Positions 19,401-37,192 of a stretch of 64,000 nt of DNA are shown here, piece by piece. Positions within the stretch are counted from its first letter, which is position 1; each line of letters begins with the position of its first letter. Below the pieces are notes generated by a model, which worked only from the letters and a program-made list of their open reading frames with translations, did not search any database and was not told the DNA's origin. The DNA comes from Patescibacteria group bacterium. GTDB lineage: Bacteria > Patescibacteriota > JABMPQ01 > JAHIRA01. The stretch is taken from positions 10,600-74,599 of the forward strand of contig JAHISJ010000023.1 in assembly GCA_018818205.1 (NCBI GenBank), written 5' to 3'. Made by a program: the position numbers and the translations under genes.

Positions 19401-19415
19401 AACAAAAAAGCAGAG

Positions 19416-19886: not shown

Positions 19887-20009
19887 TTTTCCTCCCAAAA
19901 AATGTGTACATTGTAACAATCGATTATACCCCAAAATATTCGCACGGTCAATAGTTCCTCTCTATCCAAAAGAATGGTACAATGACGTTATAACATAGTT
20001 TCAAAAAAT

Positions 20010-22175
20010 ATGGTTGAACAGCAATCAAAAAAAGAACAAAAAGCCCCTTCAAACGAAGCGTTTGCCGATCTTATTGAAAGCAATCCTCGTTTTTCAGAAG
20101 GAAAAGATGATGAGCAAGTGCAGTTTATCATTGAGGCTCTAGACATGGTTTCAGATGATGTCCTTTCACCAAAAGAGGGGCAAGAACCAAAGAGCCCCGC
20201 GGAAGTACTCGCAGCGTATCAGCTCATTTTTAATAAGGTGGTAGAGAGTCCACAGCATGAAGCGTTTTTGAGTAGCGGGATCTCTGGAAATGCAGTCTAT
20301 CAAATTAAAGAGGCTCCACCTCATTATGCCAAAGCACTCCAATCACTTGAAGATAGAATAGAAGATCAAAGGAGACTTATGATTGCGCTTAGAACCGGTC
20401 AAGATTCCTCAGAATATGACAAAACCACAGCAACGCATAATCTAAAAGTGATTGTTAAAAACCTACGTACCCGAGCACATGCCAAGCAGCCTAAAGATCG
20501 TATACAAGCAGATTCTTACGAGGTTGTGCTTGAACGTGAATTAGTAGCGAAACAGTTGGAAGATGCGGGGTATGTAGAGGCTCTAGATGATTCACTCTCC
20601 GTGAATGTACAAAAGTCACCATATGAGTATACTGTTCCCGTCGCTGAGTTAAACGATCTTCGCCTGGAAGAAGAGATTTTGGAGACGGCTGAAAGTAGGC
20701 AAAAAAAGACTACAACTGATGAGGAGTGGGACTTAGTTATGGATAATGCTGAGGCGGTGAAAAGAAAAGAGAAACTGCAAGAAAAGAGTGATGAACTTAA
20801 GACTGAGGGCCTTTCTGAGAATGAGCAAAAACAGTTAGAATCTGAAACTCGATATCTTGAGTATCTTATGGCACTCGAGGACGCGCGAGTAGAAGGAAAC
20901 AAGACACGAGTGCTTGCCCGTAAGTATGAAGCGAAGCGTGCTCCAATAAGATTTGAAGCGGATACGCGAATGGCCCGGCGTAAAGAAGCGGAAGAGGAAG
21001 TTCACAAAGTTATCCCCGGCAAGCAAGCTGAGAGAGAAGACTTTGGAGGAGAAGAAGCGGATGCCGAGAAAAAAAAGCGAGAAGCTGAGAGTGATGAAAC
21101 ACTAACAATGCAGAGCCAGGATGCGTTAAAGCCAATCCGGGAACATGTAGAAGGTGTGTATTCACGTGCAGAAAAATTTGCGCTGGCAACGGAGCACTTG
21201 ATTAATCAGGGTATGTATGAGGAGGTAACGTTTACTGAAGATGTACCCATGTTAGATAGAGAAGGAAATAGTGTTTTGGGAGCGGAGGGTAAAGAACTTA
21301 CCAAGCAGGAAAAAAGAGTGGAGCAAGCATATAAAGTTGAGCTAACCCCAGATGAAATTAAAACAATGATTGATTCATTGTCAAGACTCAGGGAGCGCAT
21401 GGTAAATGAGAAGGTGCGGGCAGAAGCGGGACTGGAATCATCAGTAGGTATTGTCGAACTTAATTCAGCGTATACCTTTGCAACAATGAATTTGGAGACA
21501 TCTCTTGGGAGAGTTGAGTCTCGACTCAAAAACCTACGACAAGAACTTGGAGCTTTAGAAGAAATCAAAAAGCTTGAATCAGGTGAGAAGGCGCTAGCCT
21601 ACGTACATCCAGAAATTTACCGGGAACTTCACGGCAAAGTAGAACGGCTTGTAAATTTTGATGAACTAAAAGAACATTTTGCTGAGCGTCATGCAGAATT
21701 AGCAAAGCGACTGGGCAAAAAATCACTTGAATCGTTTGGCGATGCATTCATTTTTGAAGAAGTGAAAAAGGATTTACTTAAAGAATCCAGAGAGCTCAAG
21801 CATGAGCTTGGAAGGATGCATATGGAAGTAGGAAGTTTAGAAAATGATAATAATGATGTTGATGATGAGTTACAATCATATGGAATTCAAGATGAGCCAG
21901 GATTACTCATAAACGTGTGGAGAAGATTCACAAAAGCCGATAAAGGAAGGAAGGAAACGCTTGCTCAAAAAAGAGAGGCTTTGCTTAAAGTAAAGCAAAA
22001 AAATACAGAAAAAATAAACATGATACGTTCACAAGCAGGTGAAGTTGCAGAAAAGGTAGCAATAAATATTGTAACGAGAACCGTAATAGAAGAAAAACTG
22101 AAGGTGCTCAAAGCCACAGGTGAGAGAAGTGAACAACGTAAACTGGGCAGTCTCTTTAAGCCAATAGAAGCCTAA
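20010..22175 (+). CDS. large acidic coiled-coil protein (721 aa). Unknown function.
   Basis: Glu/Lys/Arg-rich helical sequence. No NTP-binding or catalytic motifs recognised. Confidence 0.5.
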   Translation: MVEQQSKKEQKAPSNEAFADLIESNPRFSEGKDDEQVQFIIEALDMVSDDVLSPKEGQEPKSPAEVLAAYQLIFNKVVESPQHEAFLSSGISGNAVYQIKEAPPHYAKALQSLEDRIEDQRRLMIALRTGQDSSEYDKTTATHNLKVIVKNLRTRAHAKQPKDRIQADSYEVVLERELVAKQLEDAGYVEALDDSLSVNVQKSPYEYTVPVAELNDLRLEEEILETAESRQKKTTTDEEWDLVMDNAEAVKRKEKLQEKSDELKTEGLSENEQKQLESETRYLEYLMALEDARVEGNKTRVLARKYEAKRAPIRFEADTRMARRKEAEEEVHKVIPGKQAEREDFGGEEADAEKKKREAESDETLTMQSQDALKPIREHVEGVYSRAEKFALATEHLINQGMYEEVTFTEDVPMLDREGNSVLGAEGKELTKQEKRVEQAYKVELTPDEIKTMIDSLSRLRERMVNEKVRAEAGLESSVGIVELNSAYTFATMNLETSLGRVESRLKNLRQELGALEEIKKLESGEKALAYVHPEIYRELHGKVERLVNFDELKEHFAERHAELAKRLGKKSLESFGDAFIFEEVKKDLLKESRELKHELGRMHMEVGSLENDNNDVDDELQSYGIQDEPGLLINVWRRFTKADKGRKETLAQKREALLKVKQKNTEKINMIRSQAGEVAEKVAINIVTRTVIEEKLKVLKATGERSEQRKLGSLFKPIEA

Positions 22176-22201
22176 AAACAAACAAAAAAAGCGCTTAGAA
22201 T

Positions 22202-22756
22202 TCATTCTAGCGCTTCATTAACGAGGTCATCGAGCTCAACTCGAGTACCGTTTTTAATATCAAAAACAATTTTTTCAGGAACGTATTTTTCTGACCCAAT
22301 AAGCATCAAAAGGTCTCTTGGAGGCTTTTTTATGATATGAAGTTTCAGTAGCACCTCATTTTGAGGATCTAGCGAAAGCATATAATCTGTATCTTTGGGT
22401 GGAAGTGCTTCAAAAAAGACGTTTATTGGACTTAAAAGATCCCCACCTCCAAATTGTAACAAGTGGATAGCGCTAAGTGGGCTTTGTACTACGCCCCCTT
22501 GATTTGATGAAAGTCGTAAAATAACATACCCATCACTATCATTGCCGGCATACTTAATGACGCAATGTTGAAAGAAGATGATCGATAATGCCTTTCTTTC
22601 TTCCTTAGAAAAATAAGGTTTAATCCACCAGGGTTTAAAAAAACCAATGGTGCGTGCAATCCAGAGCCAGATCTTCCAAAGAATCCGGTTCCTTTTCATA
22701 ATTTTGTTCCAATTCTGAAATGAATCGGTGTAGTGTTTTGGCATTTCAGCCATCAT
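22202..22756 (-). CDS. hypothetical protein (184 aa) with a Trp-rich amphipathic N-terminus. Possibly a membrane-associated PH-like protein.
   Basis: ORF convergent with the 721-aa gene. An imperfect palindrome at 22186-22213 may be a bidirectional terminator. Confidence 0.4.
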   Translation of the reverse strand: MMAEMPKHYTDSFQNWNKIMKRNRILWKIWLWIARTIGFFKPWWIKPYFSKEERKALSIIFFQHCVIKYAGNDSDGYVILRLSSNQGGVVQSPLSAIHLLQFGGGDLLSPINVFFEALPPKDTDYMLSLDPQNEVLLKLHIIKKPPRDLLMLIGSEKYVPEKIVFDIKNGTRVELDDLVNEALE

Positions 22757-22841
22757 TCCTCCTAATGCAATTTTCAGCTTGTAACTATACCGTTTTTTTG
22801 GTATTGTGTCTAGAGCAATTTACAAAAAGTAATATAAGTCT

Positions 22842-23534
22842 ATGAATGCTAAAGTATGGATTGTCATTATTATTGCAGTCGTGCTTGCAGGTGCACTGTG
22901 TGGTTCTGCTGTCTATTTCTGGCAGGGCAATACATGTCGGGTAGAAAAAAATGAGCTTATAGGTCAAATGCAAGATCTAAATGCTGATGTTCACGCATGT
23001 GAAAAAGAGATAGATGAGGTAGCGATGATTCCAAAGAAAATGGATGATGTAAAAGTAGATGAACCAGCCTACAAAGACATTACGGTTATGGGTGGCTATA
23101 CCGCAGAGGTCCCAGACACCTGGAGCGTAACCACTATTAGTGAGAGTATAGGCGAGAATTCTCTCCCTGACTTACCTACTCAGGCAATCAGTCCTAGCGA
23201 TGTAAGTTTTGGTGATATTCATGCCGGTCAAGTTGACTTTTTCTACGCGCAAAATGACATTGTAGATACATTAATAGAAGAAGAGAAGAATCAAGACGAC
23301 TCAGTAAAAACGACGTGGACTACAGAAGACATTGCTGGGTTTGAAGCGCAGGTTGTTGAATATGACCCCAACTCGGACATAAAAGGTGCTGGGAGTAAAA
23401 AATATTTTGTTACATTAGATGGCGTTGATGTTTCTGGGTTTGATGTTAAAACTATGATGATGTATGTTCATGGAGATGATGATCCAGAATATCAAGCTGA
23501 GCTAGAAAAGTTTTTTCAAAGCATTACCAAATAG
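22842..23534 (+). CDS. N-terminally membrane-anchored acidic protein (230 aa). Unknown function.
   Basis: TM WIVIIIAVVLAGALCGSAVYFW followed by an acidic soluble domain. Confidence 0.45.
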   Translation: MNAKVWIVIIIAVVLAGALCGSAVYFWQGNTCRVEKNELIGQMQDLNADVHACEKEIDEVAMIPKKMDDVKVDEPAYKDITVMGGYTAEVPDTWSVTTISESIGENSLPDLPTQAISPSDVSFGDIHAGQVDFFYAQNDIVDTLIEEEKNQDDSVKTTWTTEDIAGFEAQVVEYDPNSDIKGAGSKKYFVTLDGVDVSGFDVKTMMMYVHGDDDPEYQAELEKFFQSITK

Positions 23535-23680
23535 CACAGCGTTCTTGCTGATATTTAGGGAGTAGCTTTCCACTTGTCTGTTTTGGTGAGTCATGTTTTA
23601 ATGTAAGAAACAAACTTGCGTATGCGCAAGGTATGTTTGGATTACTTATTATATTTAAATACAATTTGAGGATCAAATAA

Positions 23681-25771
23681 ATGCCTAGAGAGTATTCACT
23701 AGAGAAAACCAGAAATATTGGAATTATCGCACACATCGATGCCGGTAAAACTACCGTAACCGAGCGTATTTTGTTCTACACGGGGATTTCACATAAAATT
23801 GGTGAGGTCCATGAGGGTGAAGCAGTTATGGACTGGATGGAGCAGGAACGTGAGAGAGGAATCACTATCACCTCAGCTGCAACAACGTGTTTTTGGAAGG
23901 ATCATAGAATCAATATTATTGATACCCCCGGACATGTTGACTTTACCGTAGAAGTTGAGCGGTCACTTCGTGTACTCGATGGCGGTGTGGTGGTTTTTGA
24001 TGGTGTCGCAGGCGTTGAACCGCAGTCAGAAACGGTATGGCATCAGGCCGATAAATACAAGGTTCCTCGTATTTGTTTTATCAATAAAATGGACAGAACC
24101 GGCGCCGATTTTTTTGCAGCGCTTGATTCTATTCATGAGAGACTTTCAAAAAGTGCAGTACCGATTCAGCTTCCCATTGGCGCAGAAGATCAGTTTGGTG
24201 GGGTGATTGACCTTATCAATGAGAAGAAATTGGTTTTTGAGGGGGAAATGGGTGCGATAATAAAAGAAGAAGAAGTCCCGGAAGACATGAAGGATCAAGT
24301 AAAAGAGTACCGGGACAAAATGGTAGAAAAGATTGTTGAGCAAGATGAAGCACTCATGGAGAAGTATCTTGAAGGAACTGAGGTAACACCAGAGGAGCTT
24401 ATAGAAGCACTAAGAAAAGGCGTTCTCTCGCTTGATATTATTCCTGTTATGTGCGGAACTGCGCTTAAAAATCAAGGTGTTCAACCGGTTTTGGATATGG
24501 TTATTAAACTGTTGCCGTCCCCGCTCGATGTACCTCCAGTTAAGGGCGAAGATCCAAAAGATCCGGAAAAAGAACTTGAGAGAAAAGCAGATGATAACGA
24601 GCCATTCGCTGGCCTCGCGTTTAAGGTTGCATCCGATCCATATGTGGGCAAACTTGTCTTCTTTAGAGTCTACTCAGGCATGCTTTCCTCTGGATCATAT
24701 GTTCTAAACAGCGCTACCGGAAACAAAGAGCGTGTTGGAAGAATCGTACGTATGCATGCAGATAAAAGAGAAGAAGTGACAGAAATGTACGCGGGTGATA
24801 TTGCAGCAATCGTAGGGCTTAAAGACACTACAACCGGTGACACATTATGTGATCAGGATAGTCCAATAATTCTTGAAAAAATAACCTTTCCAGAACCCGT
24901 TATCTCTATTGCCATTGAGCCAAAAACTAAAGCGGATCAAGAAAAGATGGGTAACGCGCTCAAAACACTTTCAGAAGAGGATCCAACATTTAGGGTCAGG
25001 TCAGATGAAGAGACTGGACAAACAATCATTGCCGGTATGGGAGAACTCCATCTGGATATCATTGTTGACAGAATGAGCAGAGAGTTTAAAGTTGAAGCAA
25101 ATATCGGAAAGCCTCAGGTTGCTTACAGAGAAACAATAAAGAAAAGTTCAGAAGCGGAAGGAAAGTACATCAAGCAGTCCGGTGGTCGTGGGCAATATGG
25201 CCATGTGTGGCTGAGAGTTGAGCCAAATGAGGTCGGTAAAGGATTTGAATTTGGAAATGAGATAAAAGGTGGTGCAATCCCACAGGAGTTTATTCCTCCG
25301 GTCGAGAAGGGTGTTAGAGAAACACTAGATAACGGTGTTCTCGCTGGGTATCCACTCGTAGACATCAAGGCAACGCTTTTTGATGGTTCGTTCCATGATG
25401 TTGACTCGTCCGAGGCAGCATTTAAAATCGCCGGTTCCATGGCGCTTAAAGCAGGCTGTCTTAAAGCAGATCCTGTTATACTCGAGCCGGTTATGAAAGT
25501 CGAGGTATTAACCCCAGAAACGTACATGGGTGATATCGTTGGCGACTTAAACTCCAAGCGCGCAAAAATTGACGAGATGACTGACAGAGGTCAAATGAAG
25601 GTCGTTAAGTGTATGGTGCCGCTTGCATCAATGTTTGGATATGCAACGTCACTCAGATCTATGACCCAAGGCCGTGGAAGCTATATCATGGAGTTTGATC
25701 ATTATGAAGAGGTGCCAAAGAACGTCGCAAAAGAGATCATCGAAGTTAAAACCGGCGTAGCTGCAAAATAA
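23681..25771 (+). CDS. fusA: translation elongation factor G
   Basis: G1 [10 protein letters not shown]3 [13 protein letters not shown]. 696 aa; domains II-V recognisable. Confidence 0.95.
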
Positions 25772-25785
25772 AACCATTTGATCTC

Positions 25786-25820
25786 TACGTAGGGGCGCCC
25801 CTTGTGGGCGCCCTTTTTTT
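25786..25820 (+). terminator. fusA terminator formed by copy 1 of a GC-rich palindrome (TACGTAGGGGCGCCCCTTGTGGGCGCCC + T7)
   Basis: 9-bp GC stem, 5-nt loop, TTTTTTT. Related copies at 26881-26917 and 30351-30380. Confidence 0.7.
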
Positions 25821-25880
25821 GTGCACGCAAAATCCCATAAAAACAATATATACGGGCGGAATTCATGCTATTTAAATCAC

Positions 25881-26315
25881 TCAATCTTTCTCAAACATCT
25901 CCAAAAACTCCACATACCCCTCTTTCTCCAAATCCTCTTTAGAAATAAATCGCAAAGCTGCAGAATTAACACAATAGCGCTTACCGTCTGGTTCTGGCCC
26001 ATCATCAAATACATGCCCCAAATGCGAGGCACCTTTTTTACTTTTCACTTCTGTTCGCTCCATACCGAGCTTCGTATCTTTTTTTTCGATAGCACATTCG
26101 CTACTTACCGTCTGAGAAAAACTGGGCCAACCGGTTCCAGAATCAAACTTATCTTTTGAACTAAATAATGGTTCACCGGTAGCCACATCAACATAAATAC
26201 CTTCTTGCTTGTTGTCCCAGTATTCATTGTTAAATGCAGGCTCCGTGCCTTCTTCCTGTGTCACTGAGTATTGGAGGGGAGTCAACTTCTTTCTTAAATC
26301 TTTTTTGTCATTCAT
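25881..26315 (-). CDS. msrB: peptide methionine (R)-S-oxide reductase MsrB
   Basis: GTGWPSF; the catalytic [11 protein letters not shown]; [10 protein letters not shown]. Confidence 0.9.
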
Positions 26316-26832
26316 GGCTTTTAATATATTCCTCTCTCCCTGATCCTTTTTTATATGCTAAATAGTGCTCTTGCCTCTTTTTGTAGTAATCTTGATGTTC
26401 TTCCTCAGCTTCATAAAACGGTTTTTCGGGAAGAATCTTTGTGACAATCGGACTATCATATTTACTTGAGCGTTCTAAATCGGCTTTAGATTCTTTTGCA
26501 TACTTTTTTTGTTCATCGTCAGTGTAAAAGATTACCGTCTCATACTGCGAGCCTCTATCAGCAAATTGCCCTCCTTTGTCAGTCGGATTAATGTTTCCCC
26601 AAAAACGATTCAGTAGTTCAGGATACATTATAACTTCTGGGTCGTAGATCACTTTAGTTGCTTCAATATGCCCGGTAGTTCCAGTGGAAACTTCTTCATA
26701 CGTTGGATTTTCTGTATTGCCACCGGTATACCCATTTATAGCTTCAATAACGCCATCAAGCTCTTCCATAGCGGCTTCAATACACCAAAAGCAGCCTCCG
26801 GCGAAGATTGCGTGTTTGTAGTTGTCTTTCAT
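26308..26832 (-). CDS. msrA: peptide methionine (S)-S-oxide reductase MsrA
   Basis: N-terminal [14 protein letters not shown] (GCFWG/C active site); [22 protein letters not shown]. Confidence 0.9.
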
Positions 26833-26880
26833 GTAACAATTTTACCATATCTACACGTACATGCATATTTGCACAAAACA

Positions 26881-26917
26881 CCACGTAGGGGCGCCCCTTG
26901 TGGGCGCCCCTACGTGG
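26881..26917. repeat. GC-rich perfect palindrome, copy 2 (CCACGTAGGGGCGCCCC-TTG-T-GGGCGCCCCTACGTGG)
   Basis: 16-bp arms. Located about 50 bp upstream of the msrA start, in an otherwise AT-rich intergenic region. Confidence 0.8.
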
Positions 26918-26967
26918 GGATGTTGTAGGCACAGTATAATAATGCTTTTTGATAAATATTTTTAACT

Positions 26968-26996
26968 GTCATCCCCGTGGAGGCGGGGATCCATCT
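26968..26996. repeat. left 29-bp terminal inverted repeat (GTCATCCCCGTGGAGGCGGGGATCCATCT). Itself contains a 7-bp hairpin.
   Basis: 28/29 match to the reverse complement of 28322-28350. Confidence 0.75.
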
Positions 26997-27096
26997 GCTT
27001 GTTGTGAATATTGGTGGTTTGACAGTACGATGTAAAATAGATATACTTACGTAGCAAAATTACATAAAAAACAAAAATAAGCAGCGCTGGCGCTGT

Positions 27097-28308
27097 TTGT
27101 TTTATTTGATACTAATAATGAACAAAACACGCGAAACATTTGGAGAAATTCTAATTATTTTAAGCTCAGCTTTAGTAGGATTGTCTTTTCAAGAAAATAA
27201 AATCCTTGCCATCTTTTTTTTGATTGCATTGATTTTTGGTTTATATTTGAAGGTCTTTTATAACAAAATAAATACATGCTTAGCTTCTCTTCGAAGGAGA
27301 ACAGACAAATCAATTGTTGTTGGAATCTTGAATGAAATTGATTGGAGCGAATTTAGTAAATTTGGAAGAAGCTGGTCTCCTTATTCCTATGAAGATTGGA
27401 AGGAAGGATTTGAAAGAAGGAATACAATTGTAAAACCGATTAACAAAATAACAGCTTTTCGTCTTAATCGTTGTGATATAGTTTTAAATCCATATAGTGG
27501 CGTATACCCCGAAAGTGATGCAGAATCATTGGAGAGCTTACATCTATTTTTTGATTATGTCTCTCGTGGTGGTGTATTTGTGAACGTTGGTGATATTCCC
27601 GGATATTATGAATACAGCAAACCCCTATATAAACCATACAATTCAGTGCTTATGCAAAATGGAAGATACGAAGTTAATCATGCTCCGTTTGTAAATAATT
27701 TAAAGATTAGAGTCCATCTTGTGGGCGAGAACGATCAATTTATAGTGCCTAGAGATAGTAATGACTATGAAGTAGAGCGATATATTGTGGTAAAAGAGGG
27801 AAAAGAACAGCAGGATTGTATTAGTGAAAACTATATCCCATGGGGGGAAGGTTGTTATGAAAGAAAAAAATATGATTTAGGTGTAAAAGAATTTCCTGAA
27901 GGAGAATATTCTTCTTGTTTTAGAAAAAAATATGGAGAGGGTTCTTTTATTATTTCATTAATGCATATGGGAAAAGCAGAACAAAAAGATGATGAGGATG
28001 CCAAAGATAAGCATCCAAACAAAAGTGTAAAAAATATTCTTATTATAAATGCCATTAGGAGTGTTATATCAAAAGAAAAAAATTTCTTTGGTAGTATTTA
28101 TCGTTATATTAAAGGTAAGATTAGTATTATATTTAAACATATAGGTATAGTCTCATTTTTTGGCAAGATGGCTTTTTTAGTAGTGATTACATGGCTCATT
28201 ATAGTAACATTTGTATTATTTTATTTTAGGTTTTATCAGTGTCCATATCAAAAAAATGGCAAAGAAAACAATTATTATATTGATTCAGTCACAATCAAGA
28301 TCAGGTAA
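27097..28308 (+). CDS. hypothetical membrane protein (403 aa), very AT-rich codon usage (K/N/I/Y/F-rich). N- and C-terminal TM segments flank a Tyr/Glu-rich soluble domain.
   Basis: ORF. TM helices ILIILSSALVGL, AIFFLIALIFGLYL, FLVVITWLIIVTFVLFYF. No catalytic motif recognised. Confidence 0.45.
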   Translation: MFYLILIMNKTRETFGEILIILSSALVGLSFQENKILAIFFLIALIFGLYLKVFYNKINTCLASLRRRTDKSIVVGILNEIDWSEFSKFGRSWSPYSYEDWKEGFERRNTIVKPINKITAFRLNRCDIVLNPYSGVYPESDAESLESLHLFFDYVSRGGVFVNVGDIPGYYEYSKPLYKPYNSVLMQNGRYEVNHAPFVNNLKIRVHLVGENDQFIVPRDSNDYEVERYIVVKEGKEQQDCISENYIPWGEGCYERKKYDLGVKEFPEGEYSSCFRKKYGEGSFIISLMHMGKAEQKDDEDAKDKHPNKSVKNILIINAIRSVISKEKNFFGSIYRYIKGKISIIFKHIGIVSFFGKMAFLVVITWLIIVTFVLFYFRFYQCPYQKNGKENNYYIDSVTIKIR

Positions 28309-28321
28309 TTTTGATTTGAGA

Positions 28322-28350
28322 AGATGGATCCCCGCCTCCACAGGGATGAC
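28322..28350. repeat. right 29-bp terminal inverted repeat (AGATGGATCCCCGCCTCCACAGGGATGAC)
   Basis: Reverse complement equals the left repeat with one mismatch. Confidence 0.75.
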
Positions 28351-28476
28351 AAAAACAAAGACAATCATAAATGAATCGTACCCGACTGCATGGTCATTCC
28401 ATATTCACAATACAAAAAACCCTCCACGCATACATGCACGGAGGGGATCTCGTTTTTAGCATTAATCTGAAAAAAA

Positions 28477-30249
28477 TCAGAAGGTGTAGAAGACGTTTAA
28501 GGAAAAGTAGGTAAGTTTCAAAGTGGCAAGAGGATTAGGATTCTCCAGGCTATAGTAGGTGTACATGCCTGGTTTCCATTTGAGCGAAAACCCAAATGTG
28601 CTCGGTCTCATATCAAACTTCTCAGAAAGATACCATCCTCCTCGCAGTTCAACATAGATGCCGTGCAAGGAATGCCCCATGGCTTGTGTCACAGACAGAT
28701 TATAATATTTTACTGTCTTTGATATGCCATAAAGGTTAGTATGCCATCCCATTGCGGCAACAAAGAAGAAGTCTGATTTATGTCGTTTGCCACTAAGGTA
28801 AAAATCCATGCCAAAGAGAATGTGCAAATCGAACCCATTTGGATTAAACATATTCATTCCAACGGTCACTTCAAGCGATCCACCAATAGGAGCAATTTTT
28901 CCTTTAACCCGTGTTATTCCACCAATAGTAAGGGAAGATTTCCTGGAAATCTTTGCAAAGTCAGTTGTAAATCCAAGCGTGGGCCCAAACTGTACAATGA
29001 CATTGCGGCTGGATTTCTTTTTTGAAGTCACTTTTCTCCATGTCACTTTCTTTGTTAGTGGCCATGGTGGCGGGTATCTGTTATACAGCTTTTCAGCAAT
29101 TTTTCTACCAGTTGGAAGTGGGTTTTTAACGAATTTTTTTCTACCTACTTTACTTAAAAAGCTTTTAACATGGCTTACAACACCGCCTCCAAATACTTGA
29201 TGACTAAGGCCAAGTTTGTAAACTATTTTTTGGTAGTCCTCTCTTCTTCTTGGGTAGGTTCCTGAGAAGGAAATTCCACCAGACAAACCTGAATGCGATC
29301 CAGTTGAGCTGAGTGTGCGCCTAACCTCGATACCATATGAGGCACCAAATCTTTTATCTGGCACACAAGATATCAAAAGGAAAAGCGGTATGTTTTTCTT
29401 GGAACATTCCGTATAAAACTTTCGAACTTCTGGATTACTTTTGTCAAAGCGACTTTGGCTATCCGAAGTCGCACGTATAGAAAGAGTAGATTGTATTTTA
29501 ACAACTGCACCAAGATTAAGCGATTCTTTAAGTGAAACAACAATAGCATCTCGAACGAGCTTACAAAATCGTCCCTTCATCTCATATGTACCAATGCCAA
29601 TCAGCTTTGTCACAGTTCGTGCAGCAGGCTTCCAAGGCAATGGATACCGCTTACGCAGAATATCTGCAACTTTTTTTGGCCAGGTAGTATTATTCTTCTT
29701 CCAAAGCTGTGCACGATTACTTTTGGCATAATACGCATTAATCTTGTATTGAAGTGAATCACTTTCGAAGCCAACCCCATATAATTGTACAAGCTTTAAG
29801 TAAGGGTCGTTATAATTCAAAGAAAACGTAATACCGCCTCCATTGTACGCACGAAGCCCGGTATTATTTACAGGATGATAATTTTGAATAACTTGTACAA
29901 ATTCGTAGTAGAAATGAACTGTACTTTGGCTATAAGGGGTACATCCAAGTAACAAGAAAAGCTTAACTTTCTTTTTTATAGCTTCTTTGTGAAACTTCTT
30001 TACAACATTGGGAGCAATCTTGTTATAATCAGGCACCAAACTTTTTGTCGTGTGACTAAGCGTAAGGTATGAATTGAATCTCACTACCGATCCCTTTTTA
30101 AGCATCGCTTTAAGTGATTCAACAACCAAGTCGCGACTCAGTTTGCACAATGTGCCCTTCATCGCATAACCACCAACGCCAATAACGGCGCTTCCAAATA
30201 CATTCTGTGGCAGCAGCAAAAGCGCTACCAAAAACAACATTTTTCTCAC
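28477..30249 (-). CDS. secreted protein (590 aa): signal peptide, two tandem copies of a roughly 90-aa domain, and a C-terminal beta-rich region ending in aromatic Phe (OMP-like beta-signal)
   Basis: Signal peptide MRKMLFLVALLLLPQNVFGSA. Duplicated GxGxY-MKG-x-CKL-x-RD-x-VV-SLK...LFLL-x-C-x-P blocks. C-terminus ...LKLTYFSLNVFYTF. Confidence 0.45.
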   Translation of the reverse strand: MRKMLFLVALLLLPQNVFGSAVIGVGGYAMKGTLCKLSRDLVVESLKAMLKKGSVVRFNSYLTLSHTTKSLVPDYNKIAPNVVKKFHKEAIKKKVKLFLLLGCTPYSQSTVHFYYEFVQVIQNYHPVNNTGLRAYNGGGITFSLNYNDPYLKLVQLYGVGFESDSLQYKINAYYAKSNRAQLWKKNNTTWPKKVADILRKRYPLPWKPAARTVTKLIGIGTYEMKGRFCKLVRDAIVVSLKESLNLGAVVKIQSTLSIRATSDSQSRFDKSNPEVRKFYTECSKKNIPLFLLISCVPDKRFGASYGIEVRRTLSSTGSHSGLSGGISFSGTYPRRREDYQKIVYKLGLSHQVFGGGVVSHVKSFLSKVGRKKFVKNPLPTGRKIAEKLYNRYPPPWPLTKKVTWRKVTSKKKSSRNVIVQFGPTLGFTTDFAKISRKSSLTIGGITRVKGKIAPIGGSLEVTVGMNMFNPNGFDLHILFGMDFYLSGKRHKSDFFFVAAMGWHTNLYGISKTVKYYNLSVTQAMGHSLHGIYVELRGGWYLSEKFDMRPSTFGFSLKWKPGMYTYYSLENPNPLATLKLTYFSLNVFYTF

Positions 30250-30350
30250 AATTTCCTCCTTTTGTGAATGAAAAAAAGACCATAAGAATGCGTGTCACCA
30301 TAGCATAAAACCCAGACCACGTCAACCCAAAAAGGACAATATTATGATTC

Positions 30351-30380
30351 GTAGGGGCGTCCCTTGTGGACGCCCTCTAT
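30351..30380. repeat. GC-rich palindrome, copy 3 (GTAGGGGCGTCCC-TTGT-GGACGCCCTCTA), degenerate
   Basis: Shares core GTAGGGGCGyCCCTTGTGGrCGCCC with copies 1 and 2. Located upstream of the start of the minus-strand 590-aa gene and upstream of tuf. Confidence 0.65.
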
Positions 30381-30612
30381 CCACACCCTCAAAAAATCCA
30401 ATGTAAGGGAATAACAGGCAATCGTGTCTATTTTTTCTTTTATCCAAGCCAAAAAAAAGTATCTCCAAGCTCAAAAGGGTATACGGAAATAAAATACTTG
30501 CATGATTTACAAGAACTTGTTATACTCATGCCTAGTGTTACGCTAGGTTGATTCTAGCGGGACTTAATGTTCAACATAATTTTATCTATCAATAGTATTA
30601 AATCAAAAAAAT

Positions 30613-31803
30613 ATGGCAGAAAAATTCGAACGTACAAAACCCCATCTCAACGTGGGTACCATTGGACACGTTGATCATGGTAAAACTACACTGACTGCGG
30701 CAATCCTTAAAGTTATTGGTGCTTCAGGCGTTGGTAAAGCACAAGATAAAGATGTCAGTCAAATCGATAATGCTCCAGAAGAAAAAGAGCGTGGTATTAC
30801 TATTGCGACTTCTCACTGTGAGTATGAGACAGAGAAGAGACACTATGCACATGTTGACTGCCCAGGACATGCTGATTATGTCAAGAACATGATCACCGGT
30901 GCTGCTCAAATGGACGGTGCTATTTTAGTGGTATCTGCAGCTGATGGCCCTATGCCACAAACACGTGAACACATTCTACTTGCTAAACAAATTGGTGTTC
31001 CCTCAATTGTTGTTTTCTTAAATAAGGTTGATCAGGTTGATGATCCAGAGCTTATTGAGCTAGTTGAAGAAGAAGTACGTGATCTTCTTAAAAAATATGA
31101 ATTCCCAGGTGATGAAATTCCTATCATTAAAGGGTCAGCACTCAAAGCACTTGAGAATCCTTCAGGTGATGATGCAAAGCCTGTTTTAGAACTTCTTGAG
31201 GCACTTGATACCTACATTCCTGAGCCTGAGAGAGATATTGACAAGCCATTCCTTATGCCAATTGAGGACATCTTCTCAATAGAAGGTCGAGGTACAGTGG
31301 TAACCGGTAGAATTGATCGTGGTGTAGTTAACGTTAATGACGAGGTAGAAATTGTCGGTCTGCGCCCAACGCAAAAGACGATTGTTACCGGAATTGAGAT
31401 GTTCAACAAGTCACTCGATGAAGGTAAGGCTGGCGATAACGCTGGTATACTCGTTAGAGGTACTAAAAAAGAAGAAGTTGAGCGTGGACAAGTTCTTGCA
31501 AAGCCAGGGACAATCACTCCTCACTCTGAGTTTGAAGCAGAGGTGTATATTCTTACTAAAGAAGAAGGTGGTAGACATACTGCATTTGCAAAGGGTTACA
31601 AGCCGCAGTTTTACGTCAGAACAACAGACGTAACTGGTGAAGTTGAGCTTCCAGAAGGTACAGAAATGGTTATGCCAGGTGACACTGCAAATCTAAAGGT
31701 TAAGCTGGCAAAAGAAGTTGCCATGGAAGACGGTATGCGCTTTGCTATTCGTGAAGGTGGTAGAACCGTTGGTGCGGGAGTTGTTTTAAAGATCATTAAA
31801 TAA
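30613..31803 (+). CDS. tuf: translation elongation factor Tu
   Basis: [51 protein letters not shown]. Confidence 0.95.
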
Positions 31804-31814: not shown

Positions 31815-31852
31815 AAAGAGGAACGTAACGTACGTTCCTCTTTGATAGTTTT
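31815..31852 (+). terminator. intrinsic terminator/attenuator after tuf (AAAGAGGAACG-loop-CGTTCCTCTTT + T-rich)
   Basis: 11-bp perfect stem followed by GATAGTTTTT. Confidence 0.55.
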
Positions 31853-31863
31853 TGCAAACATAC

Positions 31864-32301
31864 ATGGTTAAAGCGAGTACTAAACAAGTGAAGAAAAAAG
31901 TGGAGAAGAAATCAGAGAAGAAATCTGATGCCAAAAAGGCCATTCGAGGCTCTGAGGAGCCTTCAGGCTCTCGAAAAGAGAAAAAGACTCCAGAAGAAAA
32001 GCAACGCATCAGAATAAAGATCAAAGCGTACGATCATAAGCTTATTGATCAATCTGCTGCACAAATTGTTGACACTGCAGAAAGAACAGGTGCACGAGTG
32101 TGTGGTCCTGTGCCGCTTCCGACAGAGAGACACAGAGAGACCGTTATCAGATCTCCCTTTGCTCATAAAGATTCGCGTGAACAGTATGAAATCCGCGTTC
32201 ACAAGCGTTTAGTAGACATTGTTGACTCTAATCAGAAGACAATCGAATCTTTAACAGAGCTAAATCTGCCAGCAGGGGTTGATATTGAAATAAAGATGTA
32301 G
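31864..32301 (+). CDS. rpsJ: 30S ribosomal protein S10 with an approximately 45-aa Lys-rich N-terminal extension. A TTG at 31852 is an alternative start.
   Basis: Core [54 protein letters not shown] matches the S10 fold. N-terminal [16 protein letters not shown] tail. Confidence 0.9.
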
Positions 32302-32381
32302 TATACTGCATTGTTACCCTGTTGAATCTGAATGCAGTAGTATCTGTACTTTCAGATTGGGTCGGGAGCTAAGAGTCCTCC

Positions 32382-32416
32382 GTAAGACTCATACATATAG
32401 GTCTTACTTTTTATTT
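32382..32416 (+). promoter_or_regulatory. terminator-like hairpin (GTAAGAC-12 nt-GTCTTAC + TTTTTATTT) inside the rpsJ-rplC spacer. Candidate attenuator.
   Basis: 7-bp stem plus U-run only about 20 nt upstream of the rplC ATG. Additional 9-bp stem at 32304-32339. Confidence 0.35.
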
Positions 32417-32437
32417 ACACTACCGTTGATTAATCAT

Positions 32438-33067
32438 ATGAAGGCGCTACTAGGTAAAAAAATTGGAATGTCACGAGTCTTTGACCAAAACGGCACCGCA
32501 GTGCCGGTGACGCTTGTTACGGCTGGTCCCTGCACAGTGACTGCCAGAAAGACAAATGATAAGGACGGCTATCTCGCAGTTCAGCTTGCGTATGGCTTAA
32601 AGAAGTCAAAAAAGGGAAAGAAAGAAAGTATCAAAGACTATGCATTTGTAAGAGAATGGAGAACAACACAGGTTGATGAAGCATACGAGCTTGGAAAAGA
32701 AGTCACCGCAGCAGTAATCAATAAAGGTGATCTTGTTACCGTAACCAGTACATCAAAAGGTAAAGGATTTATGGGTGTTGTTAAAAGATATGGGTTCAAG
32801 GGGTCACCAAAGACGCATGGTCACAAGCACGATTTAAGAAAACCGGGATCAATCGGGTGCGCGTTTCCTGAGCATGTTTTGAAGGGTAAAAAGATGGCAG
32901 GCCGGATGGGTGGTGGTACAGTAACAGTGCAAAATTTAGCGGTTATTGATGTAGATCCAGAAAAGAACCTGATAGCACTTAGTGGTTCAATACCAGGAGC
33001 CCGCAATACATATCTCAAACTTATTGTGACAAAGTCTTCAGAAGATAAAGAAGGTAAGAGTAAGTAA
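32438..33067 (+). CDS. rplC: 50S ribosomal protein L3. Start at the internal ATG; the ORF-track start at 32357 is unlikely.
   Basis: MKALLGKKIGMSRVFDQNGTAVPVT.., GKGFMGVVKRYGFKG.., HGHKH. Confidence 0.9.
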   Translation: MKALLGKKIGMSRVFDQNGTAVPVTLVTAGPCTVTARKTNDKDGYLAVQLAYGLKKSKKGKKESIKDYAFVREWRTTQVDEAYELGKEVTAAVINKGDLVTVTSTSKGKGFMGVVKRYGFKGSPKTHGHKHDLRKPGSIGCAFPEHVLKGKKMAGRMGGGTVTVQNLAVIDVDPEKNLIALSGSIPGARNTYLKLIVTKSSEDKEGKSK

Positions 33068-33708
33068 TGTCAAAAGTAACACTTTATAGTCAAGATGGAT
33101 CCAAGCAAAAAGAGGTAGAACTTCCTCCTGAGGTTTTTGAAGTTGCGGTAAAAGAAGAGCTTATCACCCGTGTATTAAATGCTTTTTTGGCAAACAGACG
33201 GGAAGCTATTGCACATACAAAAACACGTTCAGAAAGACGTGGTGGTGGTGCAAAGCCGTGGAAGCAAAAAGGGACCGGTCGTGCGCGTCACGGGTCAAAC
33301 CGTTCTCCGATTTGGAAAAAGGGTGGTGTTACGTTCGGACCAAGAAACGACAGAAATTTTTCAAAGAAGATCAACAAGAAGGAGAAGAAATCAGCATTAC
33401 TTATGACTTTTTCACTTAAGGCACAAGATAAGAACATTCGTGTTCTTGATGATATTAAGTTCGAAGCTGTTAAAACGAAGAAGATGGCAGAAATGCTTAA
33501 GGGGCTTGATCTTTCAGAAAAGAAATCGCTTATTGTTCTTCCTAAAAAAGATGATATAGTTGTAAAATCTGCACGAAACATTCCGATTGCTAAAGTGGCT
33601 ACCGTTGAAACAGTCAATCTGTATGACGTATTGAATGCAGAGGTGTGTGTAATGCCATATGAGTCATGCGCAAAGCTTAAAGAGCGTTTTATTAAGTCAG
33701 AAAAATAA
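33067..33708 (+). CDS. rplD: 50S ribosomal protein L4
   Basis: ERRGGGAKPWKQKGTGRARHGSNRSPIWKKGGVTFGP; position after L3. Confidence 0.9.
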   Translation: MSKVTLYSQDGSKQKEVELPPEVFEVAVKEELITRVLNAFLANRREAIAHTKTRSERRGGGAKPWKQKGTGRARHGSNRSPIWKKGGVTFGPRNDRNFSKKINKKEKKSALLMTFSLKAQDKNIRVLDDIKFEAVKTKKMAEMLKGLDLSEKKSLIVLPKKDDIVVKSARNIPIAKVATVETVNLYDVLNAEVCVMPYESCAKLKERFIKSEK

Positions 33709-33713
33709 GCATC

Positions 33714-34127
33714 ATGGGACTTCTAGATACCATTTCAAAAAAGGATAAGAAGACTGCAAAGCCTGTAAAAAAGGCTAAGAAGTCTGCGTCTAAAAAGGCT
33801 ACTTCTAAATCTTCAAAGAAGGTAAAGAAGGTACGTGTACACTCGAGTGCCAATCGAGTGCTTAATAAACCCTTAGTTTCAGAAAAAGCTGCATGTATGG
33901 AAACAGAGGGTAAATATGTATTCAGTGTTGCAAAAGATGCTTCAAAAAGCGATGTAAAGCGAGCAGTTAGTGCTCTTTACAATGTAACACCAGTTAAAGT
34001 AAACGTAGTAAACGTTCTGGGAAACAAGAGTAGAAGTGGACACAAAATGCGTAAATCGAGTACGTACAAGAAGGCGATTGTGACTCTTGCACAGGGTGAA
34101 AAGATTCAATTATACGAAGGAGTATAA
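33714..34127 (+). CDS. rplW: 50S ribosomal protein L23 with an approximately 45-aa Lys-rich N-terminal extension
   Basis: Core VLNKPLVSEKAACMETEGKYVFSVAKDASKSDVKRAV..LYNVTPVKVNV. N-terminal KKTAKPVKKAKKSASKK tail. Confidence 0.85.
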   Translation: MGLLDTISKKDKKTAKPVKKAKKSASKKATSKSSKKVKKVRVHSSANRVLNKPLVSEKAACMETEGKYVFSVAKDASKSDVKRAVSALYNVTPVKVNVVNVLGNKSRSGHKMRKSSTYKKAIVTLAQGEKIQLYEGV

Positions 34128-34131
34128 AGCT

Positions 34132-34977
34132 ATGCCAATTAAAACATACAAACCGACAACTCCTGCAAGACGGTATATGTCAAATACTGATTTTTCAGAA
34201 ATCGATAAAAAGAGGCCGGAAAAGAGTCTCGCAAGTAATATCAAGAAGAAGGCAGGAAGAAACAACACAGGGACTATCACAGTCAGAAGACGTGGCGGTG
34301 GATCAAAGAGACAGTATCGTGCAATTGATTTTAAAAGAACACGTTTTGATGAGAAAGCGACAGTTACTTCTATAGAATACGATCCAAACCGAACCTCCTT
34401 TATTATGCTTGTAGAATATCCAGACGGCACTAAGTCATATATTCTTGCACCAAAAGAGTTAGAAAAAGGTGCTACAGTGGTTTCGAGTGATAAGAAAATA
34501 GAGCCGGAAACAGGGAGCAGAATGCCCCTTAAATTTGTCCCGGATGGAAGTTTTGTATACAATATTGAACTGACGCCAAAGTGTGGTGGATGCATTGTGA
34601 GATCAGCAGGTGGGACAGCAACACTCATGGGTAAAGAAGGAGGCTTTGCACAACTCAAGTTGCCGTCAGGAGAAATCAGACTTGTTAAAGATGGTTGTGC
34701 AGCATCAATTGGGCAGCTCAGTAATGTTGTTCATGAGAAAACGGTCATTGGTAAAGCGGGACGTGTTAGACATATGAGAAAGCGTCCGTCAGTGCGTGGT
34801 AAAGCTATGAATCCGGTTGACCATCCACATGGTGGTGGTGAAGGACGTTCACCTATTGGCCTTACTCATCCTAAGACTAAATGGGGAAAACCAGCACTCG
34901 GTGTAAGGACAAGGAAAAAGAACAAGAAGTCAGGTAAGTATATTGTACGCGATAGACGAGCGAATAAGCGTAAATAG
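34132..34977 (+). CDS. rplB: 50S ribosomal protein L2. Start at ATG 34132; the ORF-track start at 34087 overlaps the rplW end.
   Basis: MPIKTYKPTTPARR, TVRRRGGGSKRQYR, MNPVDHPHGGGEGRS. Confidence 0.95.
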   Translation: MPIKTYKPTTPARRYMSNTDFSEIDKKRPEKSLASNIKKKAGRNNTGTITVRRRGGGSKRQYRAIDFKRTRFDEKATVTSIEYDPNRTSFIMLVEYPDGTKSYILAPKELEKGATVVSSDKKIEPETGSRMPLKFVPDGSFVYNIELTPKCGGCIVRSAGGTATLMGKEGGFAQLKLPSGEIRLVKDGCAASIGQLSNVVHEKTVIGKAGRVRHMRKRPSVRGKAMNPVDHPHGGGEGRSPIGLTHPKTKWGKPALGVRTRKKNKKSGKYIVRDRRANKRK

Positions 34978-35056
34978 CGAATAAAGTTGTTGACGGCCCT
35001 TTTTAAAAGGGGTATACTACCAAATTAATTGGATACTAATTTTTTGAAGAACGCTC

Positions 35057-35404
35057 ATGTCACGAAGTCTTAAAAAAGGGTTGTATGTAGATGAAAAGCT
35101 TTTGAAGAAAATTCAAAATCTTAGAGCAGGCGATAAAACCGTTATTAAAACCTGGGCACGTGCATCATCAATTGCACCGGAGATGGTTGGGTTTACTATT
35201 GGTGTTCATAACGGTAGAGATCATATTCCTGTATTTATATCCGAGGATATGGTCGGACATAAGCTTGGTGAATTCTCACCAACAAGAACGTTTAGAGGGC
35301 ACGGTGGTAGAAAAGCTAAAGAAGAGGCAATTGCTGCAGCAACAGCTGAGAAGGCAAAACAGGCACAGGCAGAAACAACACTTTCATCTGATAAAAAAGA
35401 GTAA
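35057..35404 (+). CDS. rpsS: 30S ribosomal protein S19 with an Ala/Lys-rich C-terminal extension
   Basis: [19 protein letters not shown].., [37 protein letters not shown]. Confidence 0.9.
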
Positions 35405-35409
35405 ATAGT

Positions 35410-35859
35410 ATGGAATCCAGAGCAATATTAAGACATGCACGAGTAGCACCACGCAAGGCGAGATTAGTCGCAGATTTGGTGCGCGGAAAAGAAGTTGATG
35501 AAGCATTAAAGCAGCTTGCATTTTTGAATAAGAAGAGTGCGTATTTTTTTACAAAGCTGGTAAATTCCGCAGCAGCAAACGCGGTTCATAACCATGATTT
35601 AAACAGATCAAGTCTTAAAGTTTCAACAGTGCTTGTAAATGAAGGCCCAGTTTTCAAAAGGTGGCAGCCACGCGCATTTGGTCGTGCATTCCCGATTTTA
35701 AAGAAGACAAGTCATATTACTATAGGGTTAAGCGGGGAAAAAGTAAGAAAGAAAGTTGAGCAAGAGAAGGAAAAGAAAGCTGTAGAAGGCTCCCGAGGGG
35801 AAGGTACTACTGGAAAAGAAGCACAGAAGAAATCTGTTCGTTCTAAGAAAGATAATTAA
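35410..35859 (+). CDS. rplV: 50S ribosomal protein L22 with a Lys/Glu-rich C-terminal extension
   Basis: ARVAPRKARLVADLVRGKEVDEALKQLAF, GPVFKRWQPRAFGRAFPILKKTSHITI. Confidence 0.9.
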   Translation: MESRAILRHARVAPRKARLVADLVRGKEVDEALKQLAFLNKKSAYFFTKLVNSAAANAVHNHDLNRSSLKVSTVLVNEGPVFKRWQPRAFGRAFPILKKTSHITIGLSGEKVRKKVEQEKEKKAVEGSRGEGTTGKEAQKKSVRSKKDN

Positions 35860-35871
35860 TAAGGCGCAAAA

Positions 35872-36549: not shown

Positions 36550-36558
36550 GATACGCAT

Positions 36559-36972: not shown

Positions 36973-37190
36973 TGAAGCTTAAGGAAATTAGAGCAAAGTC
37001 AGTAAGTGATTTGCAGAAACTCTTAGCAGAAAAAAGAGAAACGCTAAGAGATATTCGTTTTAAGGTGTCTCAAAACCAGCATAAGAATTACAATGAGCTG
37101 GGAGTGCTTAAAAGTGATATCGCACAGATTTTAACAGTAATGAAAGAAATGAAGCTTGTAGATGAACTATCTAATAAGGATTCTAAATAG
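36972..37190 (+). CDS. rpmC: 50S ribosomal protein L29
   Basis: [36 protein letters not shown]; ATGA overlap with rplP. Confidence 0.85.
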
Positions 37191-37192
37191 AG

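Follow-up and report, generated by a model that had tools for sequence, protein, structure and literature searches.

GTAG- and CGTC-tagged repetitive extragenic palindromes at the gene junctions of a lineage-specific fusA–tuf spacer in a Patescibacteria genome

GTAG-tagged repetitive extragenic palindromes (REPs) and REPINs have been tied to REP-associated tyrosine transposases (RAYTs, TnpA_REP; Nunvar 2010, PMC2817692; Di Nocera 2013, PMC3733652; Bertels & Rainey 2011, PMC3116915). Here, we describe REPs of two superfamilies that lie between fusA and tuf in a 64-kb stretch of DNA (hereafter the window; about 40% G+C) from a Patescibacteria group bacterium (assembly GCA_018818205.1, contig JAHISJ010000023.1). 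Positions are those of the window unless another contig or locus is named.

By the published definition, a GTAG REP has a GTAG end, a stem of 6–13 bp, and a short loop, and shows complementary stem variants and G-T pairs (PMC3733652). One account (10.1101/2022.05.22.493013) describes REPIN–RAYT systems as mostly vertically inherited. CGTC-tagged REPs include the dRS3/NIME elements of Neisseria and RPE-4 and RPE-6 of Rickettsia (PMC3733652; PMC1797815). They carry a CGTC (often TGTC) or CCTC tag, a stem of 8–9 bp that opens with A-T and T-A pairs, a loop of 4–5 nt, and mostly a CCA tail; they are found mostly as head-to-head dimers, usually 20–100 bp apart, and a dedicated transposase is not known for them (PMC3733652). 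The consensus of the Neisseria dRS3 element is ATTCCCN8GGGAAT (PMC1797815).

In our judgment, the fusA–tuf spacer of the source genome is probably a lineage-specific hypervariable insertion site, all four gaps of which have been occupied by REPs (three of the GTAG and two of the CGTC superfamily), the REPs having arrived as small units that now play hairpin roles and the genes having come in by recombination.

Two REP superfamilies between fusA and tuf

The sequence GTAGGGGCGYCCCTTGTGGRCGCCC occurs at 25789–25813, 26885–26909, and 30351–30375, each time on the plus strand and with 0 mismatches. These three elements, A1, A2, and A3 (Table 1), are the palindrome copies that the initial annotation of this DNA had placed between fusA and tuf. 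No further site was found in the 64-kb window at up to three mismatches (expectation in shuffled sequence, 0.00), and the 8 kb further upstream, which bring the total examined to 72 kb, hold no REP of either type. The stretch common to A1 and A2 is exactly 27 nt long (ACGTAGGGGCGCCCCTTGTGGGCGCCC), and the likeness ends there on both sides. With a mostly G+C stem of 8 bp and the loop CTTGT, all three copies fall within the stem and loop limits of GTAG REPs. Compared to A1 and A2, A3 has a C>T together with a G>A change; these are compensatory and retain the stem pairing, and the exact A3 variant (T and A) is present in other phyla too. All three copies are intergenic, A2 and A3 being situated within divergent spacers. 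Their G+C richness is confined to the hairpins of 25–37 bp, the adjoining flanks being AT-rich and host-like.

The exact 22-nt core of the palindrome was found in at least 120 genome loci, in a scan of one genome per species of bacteria and archaea that did not include the source genome. Among the matches listed, these loci belong to Chloroflexota (many of them from Dehalococcoidia and Caldilineaceae), Latescibacterota, Acidobacteriota, Gemmatimonadota, Alpha- and other Proteobacteria, Bacteroidota, Planctomycetota, and Verrucomicrobiota. The core is also present in 80 metagenome loci, including low-GC contigs, from a scan limited to core copies with an AT run nearby (the source contig was not among the loci); 5 viral contigs carry it as well, and the loci number more than 200 in all. 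Among the matches listed, GTA precedes the core in 119 of 135 genome copies and so completes the GTAG head; the remaining flanks are unrelated. Sister elements near core copies have the same head and loop with other stem centres (AAC/GTT, GAC/GTC, GGC/GCC, AGG/CCT, and others); the stem centre is fully Watson-Crick in approximately 75 of the differently sequenced sister variants and not so in approximately 10. A G-T pair in the stem centre on the GTAG strand was observed in 168 of 398 copies, and such frequent pairs mark one strand as the functional one. Judged by its sequence, the window palindrome is a GTAG-tagged REP that matches the published definition; the label "REP-like" given in the initial annotation is thereby borne out. 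Rfam contains no family for the palindrome, its five matches being far under the gathering scores.

Two further observations concern copies in other DNA. A core variant of the Bacteroidota type, headed by GCAG and not by GTAG, precedes a second small hairpin (GGTCGCCTTTCAAAGGCGA); it was seen in the L136–L215 contigs of Ga0256406, in L015, and in L117, and many times in one metagenome. In the 11-kb viral contig L127, the copies near both ends are REP clusters and not true terminal repeats.

In other genomes the palindrome accompanies RAYT genes. In locus L001, an open reading frame (ORF) at 3952–4728 scores 80.5 against the NCBIfam cut-off of 80 for REP-associated tyrosine transposases and has GTAG-superfamily REPs, the exact core included, on both sides. 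Loci L055 and L092 encode RAYT-like proteins below the cut-off, with the palindrome inside or beside the gene, and a RAYT-like gene (E = 6e-14, also below the cut-off) was found in L134, a relative of the source. These RAYT-like genes (L055 1716–2387, L092 5803–6414, L134 2603–3316) carry their own REPs in frame right after the HUH motif. In L055 and L092, both from Chloroflexota, the palindrome-encoded peptide VGAPLVGA lies behind the MPNH.H motif, within 8–11 residues of it. In L134, three AT-rich GTAG units (DHNNVETIRGVETIH) occupy the same spot, at about 2920–3068, the final one forming a perfect palindrome (GTAGAGACAATTCATGAATTGTCTCTAC). No in-frame REP insert is present in the RAYT of L001.

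The window copies thus resemble described GTAG REP/RAYT systems in the GTAG end, the GC-rich 8-bp stem with a short loop, the extragenic position near gene 3' ends, the compensatory and G-T stem variants, and the identity of the core with copies flanking RAYT genes in other genomes. They differ in being few and strictly local (three in 72 kb) in a small AT-rich Patescibacteria genome, with no RAYT seen nearby and two of the three copies in divergent spacers. In contrast to the mostly vertical inheritance described for REPIN–RAYT systems, the identical 25-mer of the window is common to many phyla. The head of A2, moreover, is mirrored at the 3' side, which makes this element a perfect palindrome of 37 bp, with the arms of 16 bp described previously; on either strand it folds at −40 to −41 kcal/mol (z-scores, −6 to −7), and such a 3' CTAC extension was found in none of 238 copies elsewhere.

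The AT-rich membrane-protein gene in the middle of the spacer had been described as flanked by terminal inverted repeats. Inverted repeats of 33 nt, 94% complementary, are indeed present on both sides of it, at 26967–26999 and 28319–28351, but they are very probably not the ends of an insertion sequence (IS): in tag, stem, loop, and tail, these elements, B1 and B2, are CGTC-tagged, dRS3-like REPs. Both have the tag TGTC, an 8-bp stem starting with AT, the 4-nt loop GGAG, and the tail CCA, and their core, ATCCCCN8GGGGAT, may be compared with the dRS3 consensus given above. In B2, a G-C pair has become a G-T pair on the tagged strand through one C>T change, and its stem has two G-T pairs. The head-to-head arrangement of B1 and B2 is the commonest dimer type of CGTC REPs, but the pair is separated by 1319 nt and encloses a whole gene, compared to 20–100 bp in described dimers; no array is formed, and no associated phage or Piv-type recombinase was seen. 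CGTC-type elements turned up no more than 8 kb from the GTAG REP at 22 of the 120 genome loci listed. Of 54 such elements in fetched loci, 43 have the CGTC tag and 49 the CCA tail, and elements of this type are obvious in two viral contigs as well.

Taken together, all four intergenic spacers of the fusA–tuf gap carry at least one REP, compared to none of the 28 other window spacers longer than 20 bp (Fisher p = 2.8e-5), and each transcription unit is hairpin-bounded, as the initial annotation had it. A1 starts 17 nt past the fusA stop. A scan for consensus terminators lists it, and its RNA fold of −20.2 kcal/mol is followed by TTTTTTT; because of this fold of about −20 kcal/mol and the subsequent U-run, it scores as an intrinsic terminator. 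A1 with its T-run is most likely the intrinsic terminator of fusA, a prediction that agrees with the earlier view of the first copy as doubling as the fusA terminator. At the same place, the relatives L125 and L123 have ordinary, unrelated hairpins with T-runs. A2 and B1 are both localized between the divergent msrA and the gene in the middle of the spacer, whereas B2 lies just past the stop of the latter. A3 ends 2 nt before the motif TATCCACA, with which the tuf upstream region conserved in this clade begins. As A3 directly precedes this conserved motif, it forms the right edge of the variable DNA, as A1 forms the left one; in intergenic alignments with relatives, breakpoints are definable only at the T-run after A1 and at TATCCACA, the rest being too diverged. 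The motif itself resembles a DnaA box; it is found at 3853 in L123 and as an inverted pair in L134 (10446/10456) and L135 (10452/10462).

In other low-GC metagenome contigs, the same REP is situated from a few to approximately 130 nt after stop codons on the sense strand, a common place for REPs. In one contig of 39% GC, L209, three stem variants of the GTAG superfamily at 5717–8001, all on the sense strand, each follow the stop codon of one of three successive housekeeping-type genes (gltX-like, cysS, and SPFH). Since the palindrome is a generic REP that trails housekeeping genes in this contig, bracketing by REPs is not in itself evidence for cassettes. A reading of the hairpins as chance terminators was considered and rejected.

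Table 1. Features of the fusA–tuf spacer and its conserved flanks, in window coordinates.
Feature	Position	Strand	Description
fusA (EF-G), left conserved flank	23681..25771	+	696-aa ORF; Pfam EF-G domains; 100% identical to P0001 (elongation factor G, Patescibacteria group bacterium)
REP A1	25789..25813	+	GTAG head, 8-bp stem GGGCGCCC, loop CTTGT; then T7 (25814–25820)
msrB	25881..26315	-	Pfam SelR, 7.5e-48; G+C at third codon positions typical of host genome
msrA	26308..26832	-	Pfam PMSR, 7.2e-61; 8-nt overlap with msrB
REP A2	26881..26917	.	Same core, head mirrored 3'; perfect palindrome, 16-bp arms
REP B1	26967..26993	+	TGTC, ATCCCCGT, GGAG, GCGGGGAT, CCA
Promoter-like TTGACA-17-TATACT	27019..27047	+	Upstream of 396-aa ORF, within segment bounded by B copies; consensus match only
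396-aa ORFan membrane protein	27118 (ATG)..28308	+	403 aa from TTG at 27097; AT-rich
REP B2	28325..28351	-	Inverted relative to B1, tags outward (head to head); 1319 nt between arms
Terminator-like hairpin and T-run, ordinary type	28420..28445	-	After 590-aa ORF; terminator scan
590-aa secreted/surface protein, family not recognised	28477..30249	-	Signal-peptide-like N-terminus, hydrophobic segment 4–26
REP A3	30351..30375	+	GTAG head, stem GGGCGTCC/GGACGCCC; between promoter-like site of 590-aa ORF and conserved tuf upstream region
TATCCACA motif	30378..30385	+	Start of clade-conserved tuf upstream region; same 8-mer 200–235 nt upstream of tuf in L123, L134, L135
Promoter-like TTGCAT-17-TATACT for tuf and S10 operon	30498..30526	+	Read from sequence; equal layout in L125: TTGCAC-17-TAGAAT
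tuf (EF-Tu), right conserved flank	30613..31803	+	396-aa ORF, EF-Tu sequence motifs; syntenic genes of relatives have EF-Tu Pfam domains

Content and variability of the spacer

The gap between the stop codon of fusA and the start of tuf measures 4841 bp. Pfam, ORF, and hydrophobicity data agree with the gene content initially assigned to it, namely msrB and msrA on the minus strand, an AT-rich membrane-protein ORF, and a minus-strand secreted protein. The REP-bounded units each have their own promoter-like and, where relevant, terminator-like sites in consensus scans. The site preceding the 396-aa ORF is the top-scoring one in the promoter scan, with 11 of 12 positions matched.

The 396-aa ORFan gave no match in Pfam and NCBIfam scans, and a single distant homologue (29%) was found among 5.8 billion proteins searched. 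Hydrophobic segments are localized near both ends of the protein (about 22–51 and 337–374), and the structure model, with a mean predicted local distance difference test score (pLDDT) of 42.6, is confident only for the hydrophobic helices. The gene has a GC content of 30.8% and the lowest G+C at third codon positions (GC3) among the 63 genes of the window (z = −3.1), and it is probably of foreign origin. This deviation is not shared by msrB, msrA, and the 590-aa ORF, whose GC3 is host-like and which are compositionally ordinary among the window genes. The 590-aa ORF, too, is without a match in Pfam and NCBIfam scans.

Neither an integrase nor a transposase nor a RAYT was found by Pfam/NCBIfam scans or precomputed Pfam hits among the window ORFs scanned, i.e., all non-ribosomal ORFs of at least 120 aa, with the ribosomal-protein block (32357–39880 and 40956–41402) left out; for integrases, this agrees with what had been stated before. 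A tblastn search of the window with a RAYT query found nothing. ComEC is encoded in the window.

We compared the spacer with that of five relatives, in which EF-G is 76–80% identical to the window EF-G. The fusA–tuf content is a pair of ORFs of 135 and 104 aa in L123 (EF-G 80%), one minus-strand ORF of 558 aa in L125 (80%), three proteins with repeated HTH_3 domains in L133 (78%), and one ORF of 116–118 aa in L134 and L135 (76% each). Thus, the five relatives show five different gene contents, all unlike that of the source, which corresponds to the alternative content that characterizes minimal mobile elements and upholds the earlier claim that fusA and tuf are separated by lineage-specific DNA. 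No msrBA was found between fusA and tuf, and none of the GTAG and CGTC elements of the window in the spacers, of the five relatives. The arrangement that had been expected in relatives, contiguous fusA and tuf with a single palindrome copy between them, was seen in none; they have ordinary terminators and no REP there. The spacer, we conclude, is a hot spot that is filled differently in each lineage, and at least two filling events took place in the source.

The origin of the genes can be traced in part. The 558-aa ORF of L125 has the same position and strand as the 590-aa ORF of the window, a similar size, and a weak N-terminal similarity (E = 0.001); because of this resemblance, the 590-aa gene may be an older occupant. 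The nearest MsrA homologue (67%) is encoded on another contig of the metagenome-assembled genome (MAG) of L123 (GCA_018818905.1, the nearest relative), with no adjoining msrB and no REPs, and a donor search yielded no homologue above 67% identity. As judged from these sequences, msrA was probably relocated within the clade and not imported from afar.

Several features of the surrounding DNA were noted along the way. In L133, a GTAG-headed palindrome of another sequence (GTAGCCCCGTATTACGCGGGGCTAC) is situated after tuf, at 9881–9905. The str operon of the window has a second split, between rpsG and fusA (15840–23534), which contains seven ORFs and no REPs; a PLDc_N domain was found in one of these ORFs, and the other six gave no Pfam match. 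A series of ORFs similar in order, strand, and size is present between rpsG and fusA in L125, where the PLDc_N ORF was matched by Pfam and the others were not directly compared; in L134 and L135, the PLDc_N gene stands alone. Hence, the str operon is broken at two points in this clade. A perfect palindrome with a 13-bp stem (AAAGAGGAACGTAACGTACGTTCCTCTTT, 31815–31843) is situated between tuf and rpsJ; it bears no relation to the REPs and receives a terminator score on each strand. The rpsJ ORF (31852–32301) encodes 149 aa from the TTG at 31852, of which only residues 54–148 match Pfam Ribosomal_S10; S10 of relatives has 113–119 aa, so that the window ORF has either a lysine-rich N-terminal extension or a wrongly chosen start.

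Origin of the arrangement and competing explanations

If the spacer is a permissive insertion site, as we consider probable, the hairpins would have come in as discrete small units by the single-strand route of the RAYT type (HUH) proposed for GTAG REPs. We infer this route because identical copies elsewhere partner RAYT genes and because the relative L134 has a RAYT-like gene; an arrival as short discrete units, and not within larger foreign fragments, is suggested since only the hairpins are GC-rich, whereas their flanks are host-like. The GTAG units of L134 are AT-rich, but those of the source have the GC-rich form that is usual in Chloroflexota and others, a difference that hints at a possible recent import.

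The REPs would have taken hold in places that tolerate insertion, namely new, non-essential spacers that separate self-contained transcription units, and would act there as hairpins on the GTAG strand. A1 with its T-run would terminate and protect the fusA transcript, in place of the ordinary terminator of the relatives, while A2 and A3 would probably keep read-through out of the inserted units, which face opposite ways, and away from the tuf promoter. This insulation is the weakest step, since the plus strand at A2 and A3 is without U-runs. As for the genes, msrBA (relocated within the clade), the foreign AT-rich ORFan, and the fast-evolving surface protein probably entered by recombination at the permissive site. 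With a promoter-like site of its own in front of tuf, the operon could tolerate such an interruption.

Several points weigh against this explanation. A classical REP family is dispersed and of high copy number, whereas three GTAG and two CGTC copies were found in 72 kb, all of them within 4.6 kb. No RAYT was detected in the 72 kb examined, and CGTC-type REPs have no known dedicated transposase. A2 and A3 are located in divergent spacers, a less usual place for REPs, and have no T-runs on the plus strand, while termination at A1 is a prediction from sequence. Finally, REP-mediated insertion would equally predict that REPs coincide strictly with the junctions of lineage-specific DNA.

REP-mediated insertion is the strongest alternative, although we regard it as unlikely. 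It holds that the REPs were recombination joints and that complete REP-flanked transcription units were excised and inserted by a Y1 HUH enzyme (a RAYT acting on two equally oriented hairpins in the "peel and paste" manner of IS608) or by a hairpin-targeting recombinase; an insertion into a resident REP would leave the inserted unit bracketed by direct copies. The three A copies are in fact direct and exceed the units by one, A1 and A2 are identical over 27 nt on the two sides of msrBA, and the presence of msrA elsewhere in the nearest relative suggests that it has moved. The outer copies, in turn, are situated exactly at the edges of the variable DNA, and inverted CGTC REPs precisely enclose the foreign ORFan together with its promoter-like site. 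The RAYT-like gene of L134 and the proposal that dRS3 elements of Neisseria, which are integration targets, serve as recombination sites (PMC1797815) point in the same direction.

Possible parallels were found at two other loci. In L041, a Gemmatimonadota MAG, a BrnT/BrnA toxin-antitoxin pair lies between two GTAG REP doublets (660–1470); the doublets are about 105 bp each, and the region upstream of BrnT/BrnA is AT-rich. In L153, an apparent pair of the nucleotidyltransferase/HEPN type, recognized by eye from the translation, has REPs of both types at one end: within positions 1–1000 of this contig of 36% GC, an exact-core GTAG REP and a CGTC-type REP are situated at the 3' end of the pair, and hairpins of the ATCCCGG type on the other side.

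On the other hand, the case is that of a single locus, with no evidence of an empty site or a circular junction; no suitable enzyme was found in the 72 kb examined, and in no relative does the spacer contain a single resident REP. Three copies would share one orientation by chance in one case out of four, and the REP-bracketed successive housekeeping genes of L209 show that bracketing arises without a cassette mechanism. The comparison with IS200/IS605 elements (IS608) is similarly divided: hairpins of the same orientation at both ends of the segment from A1 through msrBA to A2, and the relatedness of the Y1 HUH enzyme family to RAYTs, are set against the absence of tnpA and tnpB from this segment, the absence of evidence of excision, and a housekeeping-type operon as cargo. 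An elaborated version, in which GTAG and CGTC REPs are the joints of integrase-free gene capture, single-stranded units are moved by a RAYT-type HUH enzyme, possibly on competence-acquired DNA, the GC-rich REPs are imported from neighbours or hosts, and the mirrored head of A2 is a fold-back fill-in scar, is less probable still.

It also seems to us rather improbable that the whole spacer was swapped as minimal mobile elements are, i.e., by homologous recombination in the conserved flanks after DNA uptake, with the REPs carried over from a REP-bearing donor of similar GC content. The concept is documented for Neisseria (PMC1797815), and several features are shared: conserved flanks enclose other whole genes in each genome, so that the same syntenic site has other cargo in every relative; a competence gene, comEC, is present in the window; dRS3-like repeats are nearby; and codon usage of msrBA and the 590-aa ORF is host-like. 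In this case, however, genera or species (EF-G 76–80%) rather than strains were compared, and the flanks belong to the str and S10 operons. No donor came to light (the closest MsrA is 67% identical), and the relatives are without these REPs. Moreover, crossovers in the flanking genes would not put REPs at the exact edges of the variable DNA, and the ORFan, whose composition sets it apart from its neighbours in the block, points to more than one event. The spacer behaves like a minimal mobile element site; exchange by transformation would be hypothetical.

It is very improbable that the 1385-bp segment 26967–28351 is an insertion sequence with terminal inverted repeats around a transposase gene. 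The 94% complementary 33-nt repeats, the single ORF that fills the segment, the IS-typical size, and the deviant GC content would suit an insertion sequence. Yet the ORFan, a protein with hydrophobic segments near its two ends, gave no match to a family of transposases, integrases, or nucleases and has one distant homologue among the 5.8 billion proteins, while the supposed terminal repeats are ordinary CGTC-type REPs, found alone elsewhere. With no transposase, no target-site duplication visible at the outer repeat edges, and no second copy in the window, this possibility is largely refuted.

Hardly more credible is an artefact, in which a chimeric metagenome assembly was joined at short shared repeats. 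The 25-mer is common to many co-occurring taxa, and palindromes can mislead assemblers. However, the Logan contig L121 (SRR6514274), an independent assembly of the same sample, is identical to positions 13681–30795 with 0 mismatches, and an ENA contig of 318,406 bp (k141_1722070 of ERZ27247128) also covers the upstream part of the window. At all five repeats the two assemblies are the same to the base, and the arrangement is therefore no assembly accident. The shared repeat is only 27 nt long. The host codon usage of msrBA and the 590-aa ORF, the best MsrA match in the nearest relative, and the AT-rich, host-like REP flanks argue in the same sense.

The initial annotation had also likened the palindromes to attC cassette boundaries. 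An attC site has a length of 57–141 bp, R''/L'' and L'/R' boxes, a GTTRRRY core, and extrahelical bases, and integron cassettes are mostly promoterless and share one orientation. What the locus has in common with an integron array is the superficial pattern of genes separated by palindromes, together with the toxin-antitoxin modules among bracketed units elsewhere (L041, L153), and the probability that the palindromes are attC sites and the units gene cassettes is practically negligible: the elements are far shorter (25–37 bp), near-perfect GTAG-headed hairpins, without attC boxes and without a GTTRRRY core at the borders, and belong to a REP dispersed in many genomes; the units face both ways and carry promoter-like and terminator-like sites; and no IntI or other tyrosine recombinase among the scanned window ORFs, no attI, and no Pc was found. 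The attC reading is refuted by the structure of the element itself, a hairpin with a GTAG head. The palindrome is generic, being found at hundreds of intergenic sites, which had been named as one of two marks against a cassette boundary; the other, the same gene content between fusA and tuf in all relatives, was not observed, since this content differs in every relative examined.

Implications for REPs and for reduced genomes

Both REP superfamilies have been described before. What is unusual here is the host, the low and local copy number, the identity of a 25-mer across phyla, and the mirrored head of A2. Most often, REPs have been investigated as abundant proteobacterial repeats with vertical inheritance, and our literature search found no paper that treats both REP/RAYT (REPIN) systems and Patescibacteria. 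It is notable that an ultra-small, AT-rich genome of the Patescibacteria contains two REP superfamilies in very few copies, that their sequence is identical with that of REPs from distant GC-rich phyla, and that they are confined to a stretch unlike that of all relatives.

For annotation, the consequence is that the hairpins should not be labelled as attC sites, and that the short ORFs running through them, with peptides such as GAPLVGAP and GRPQGAPL, should not be annotated as genes.

The locus is a natural case for the question of how REPs enter a naive genome, and of whether they follow gene insertions or help them. The fusA–tuf hot spot, in turn, bears on how reduced genomes gain accessory functions, e.g., methionine sulfoxide repair.

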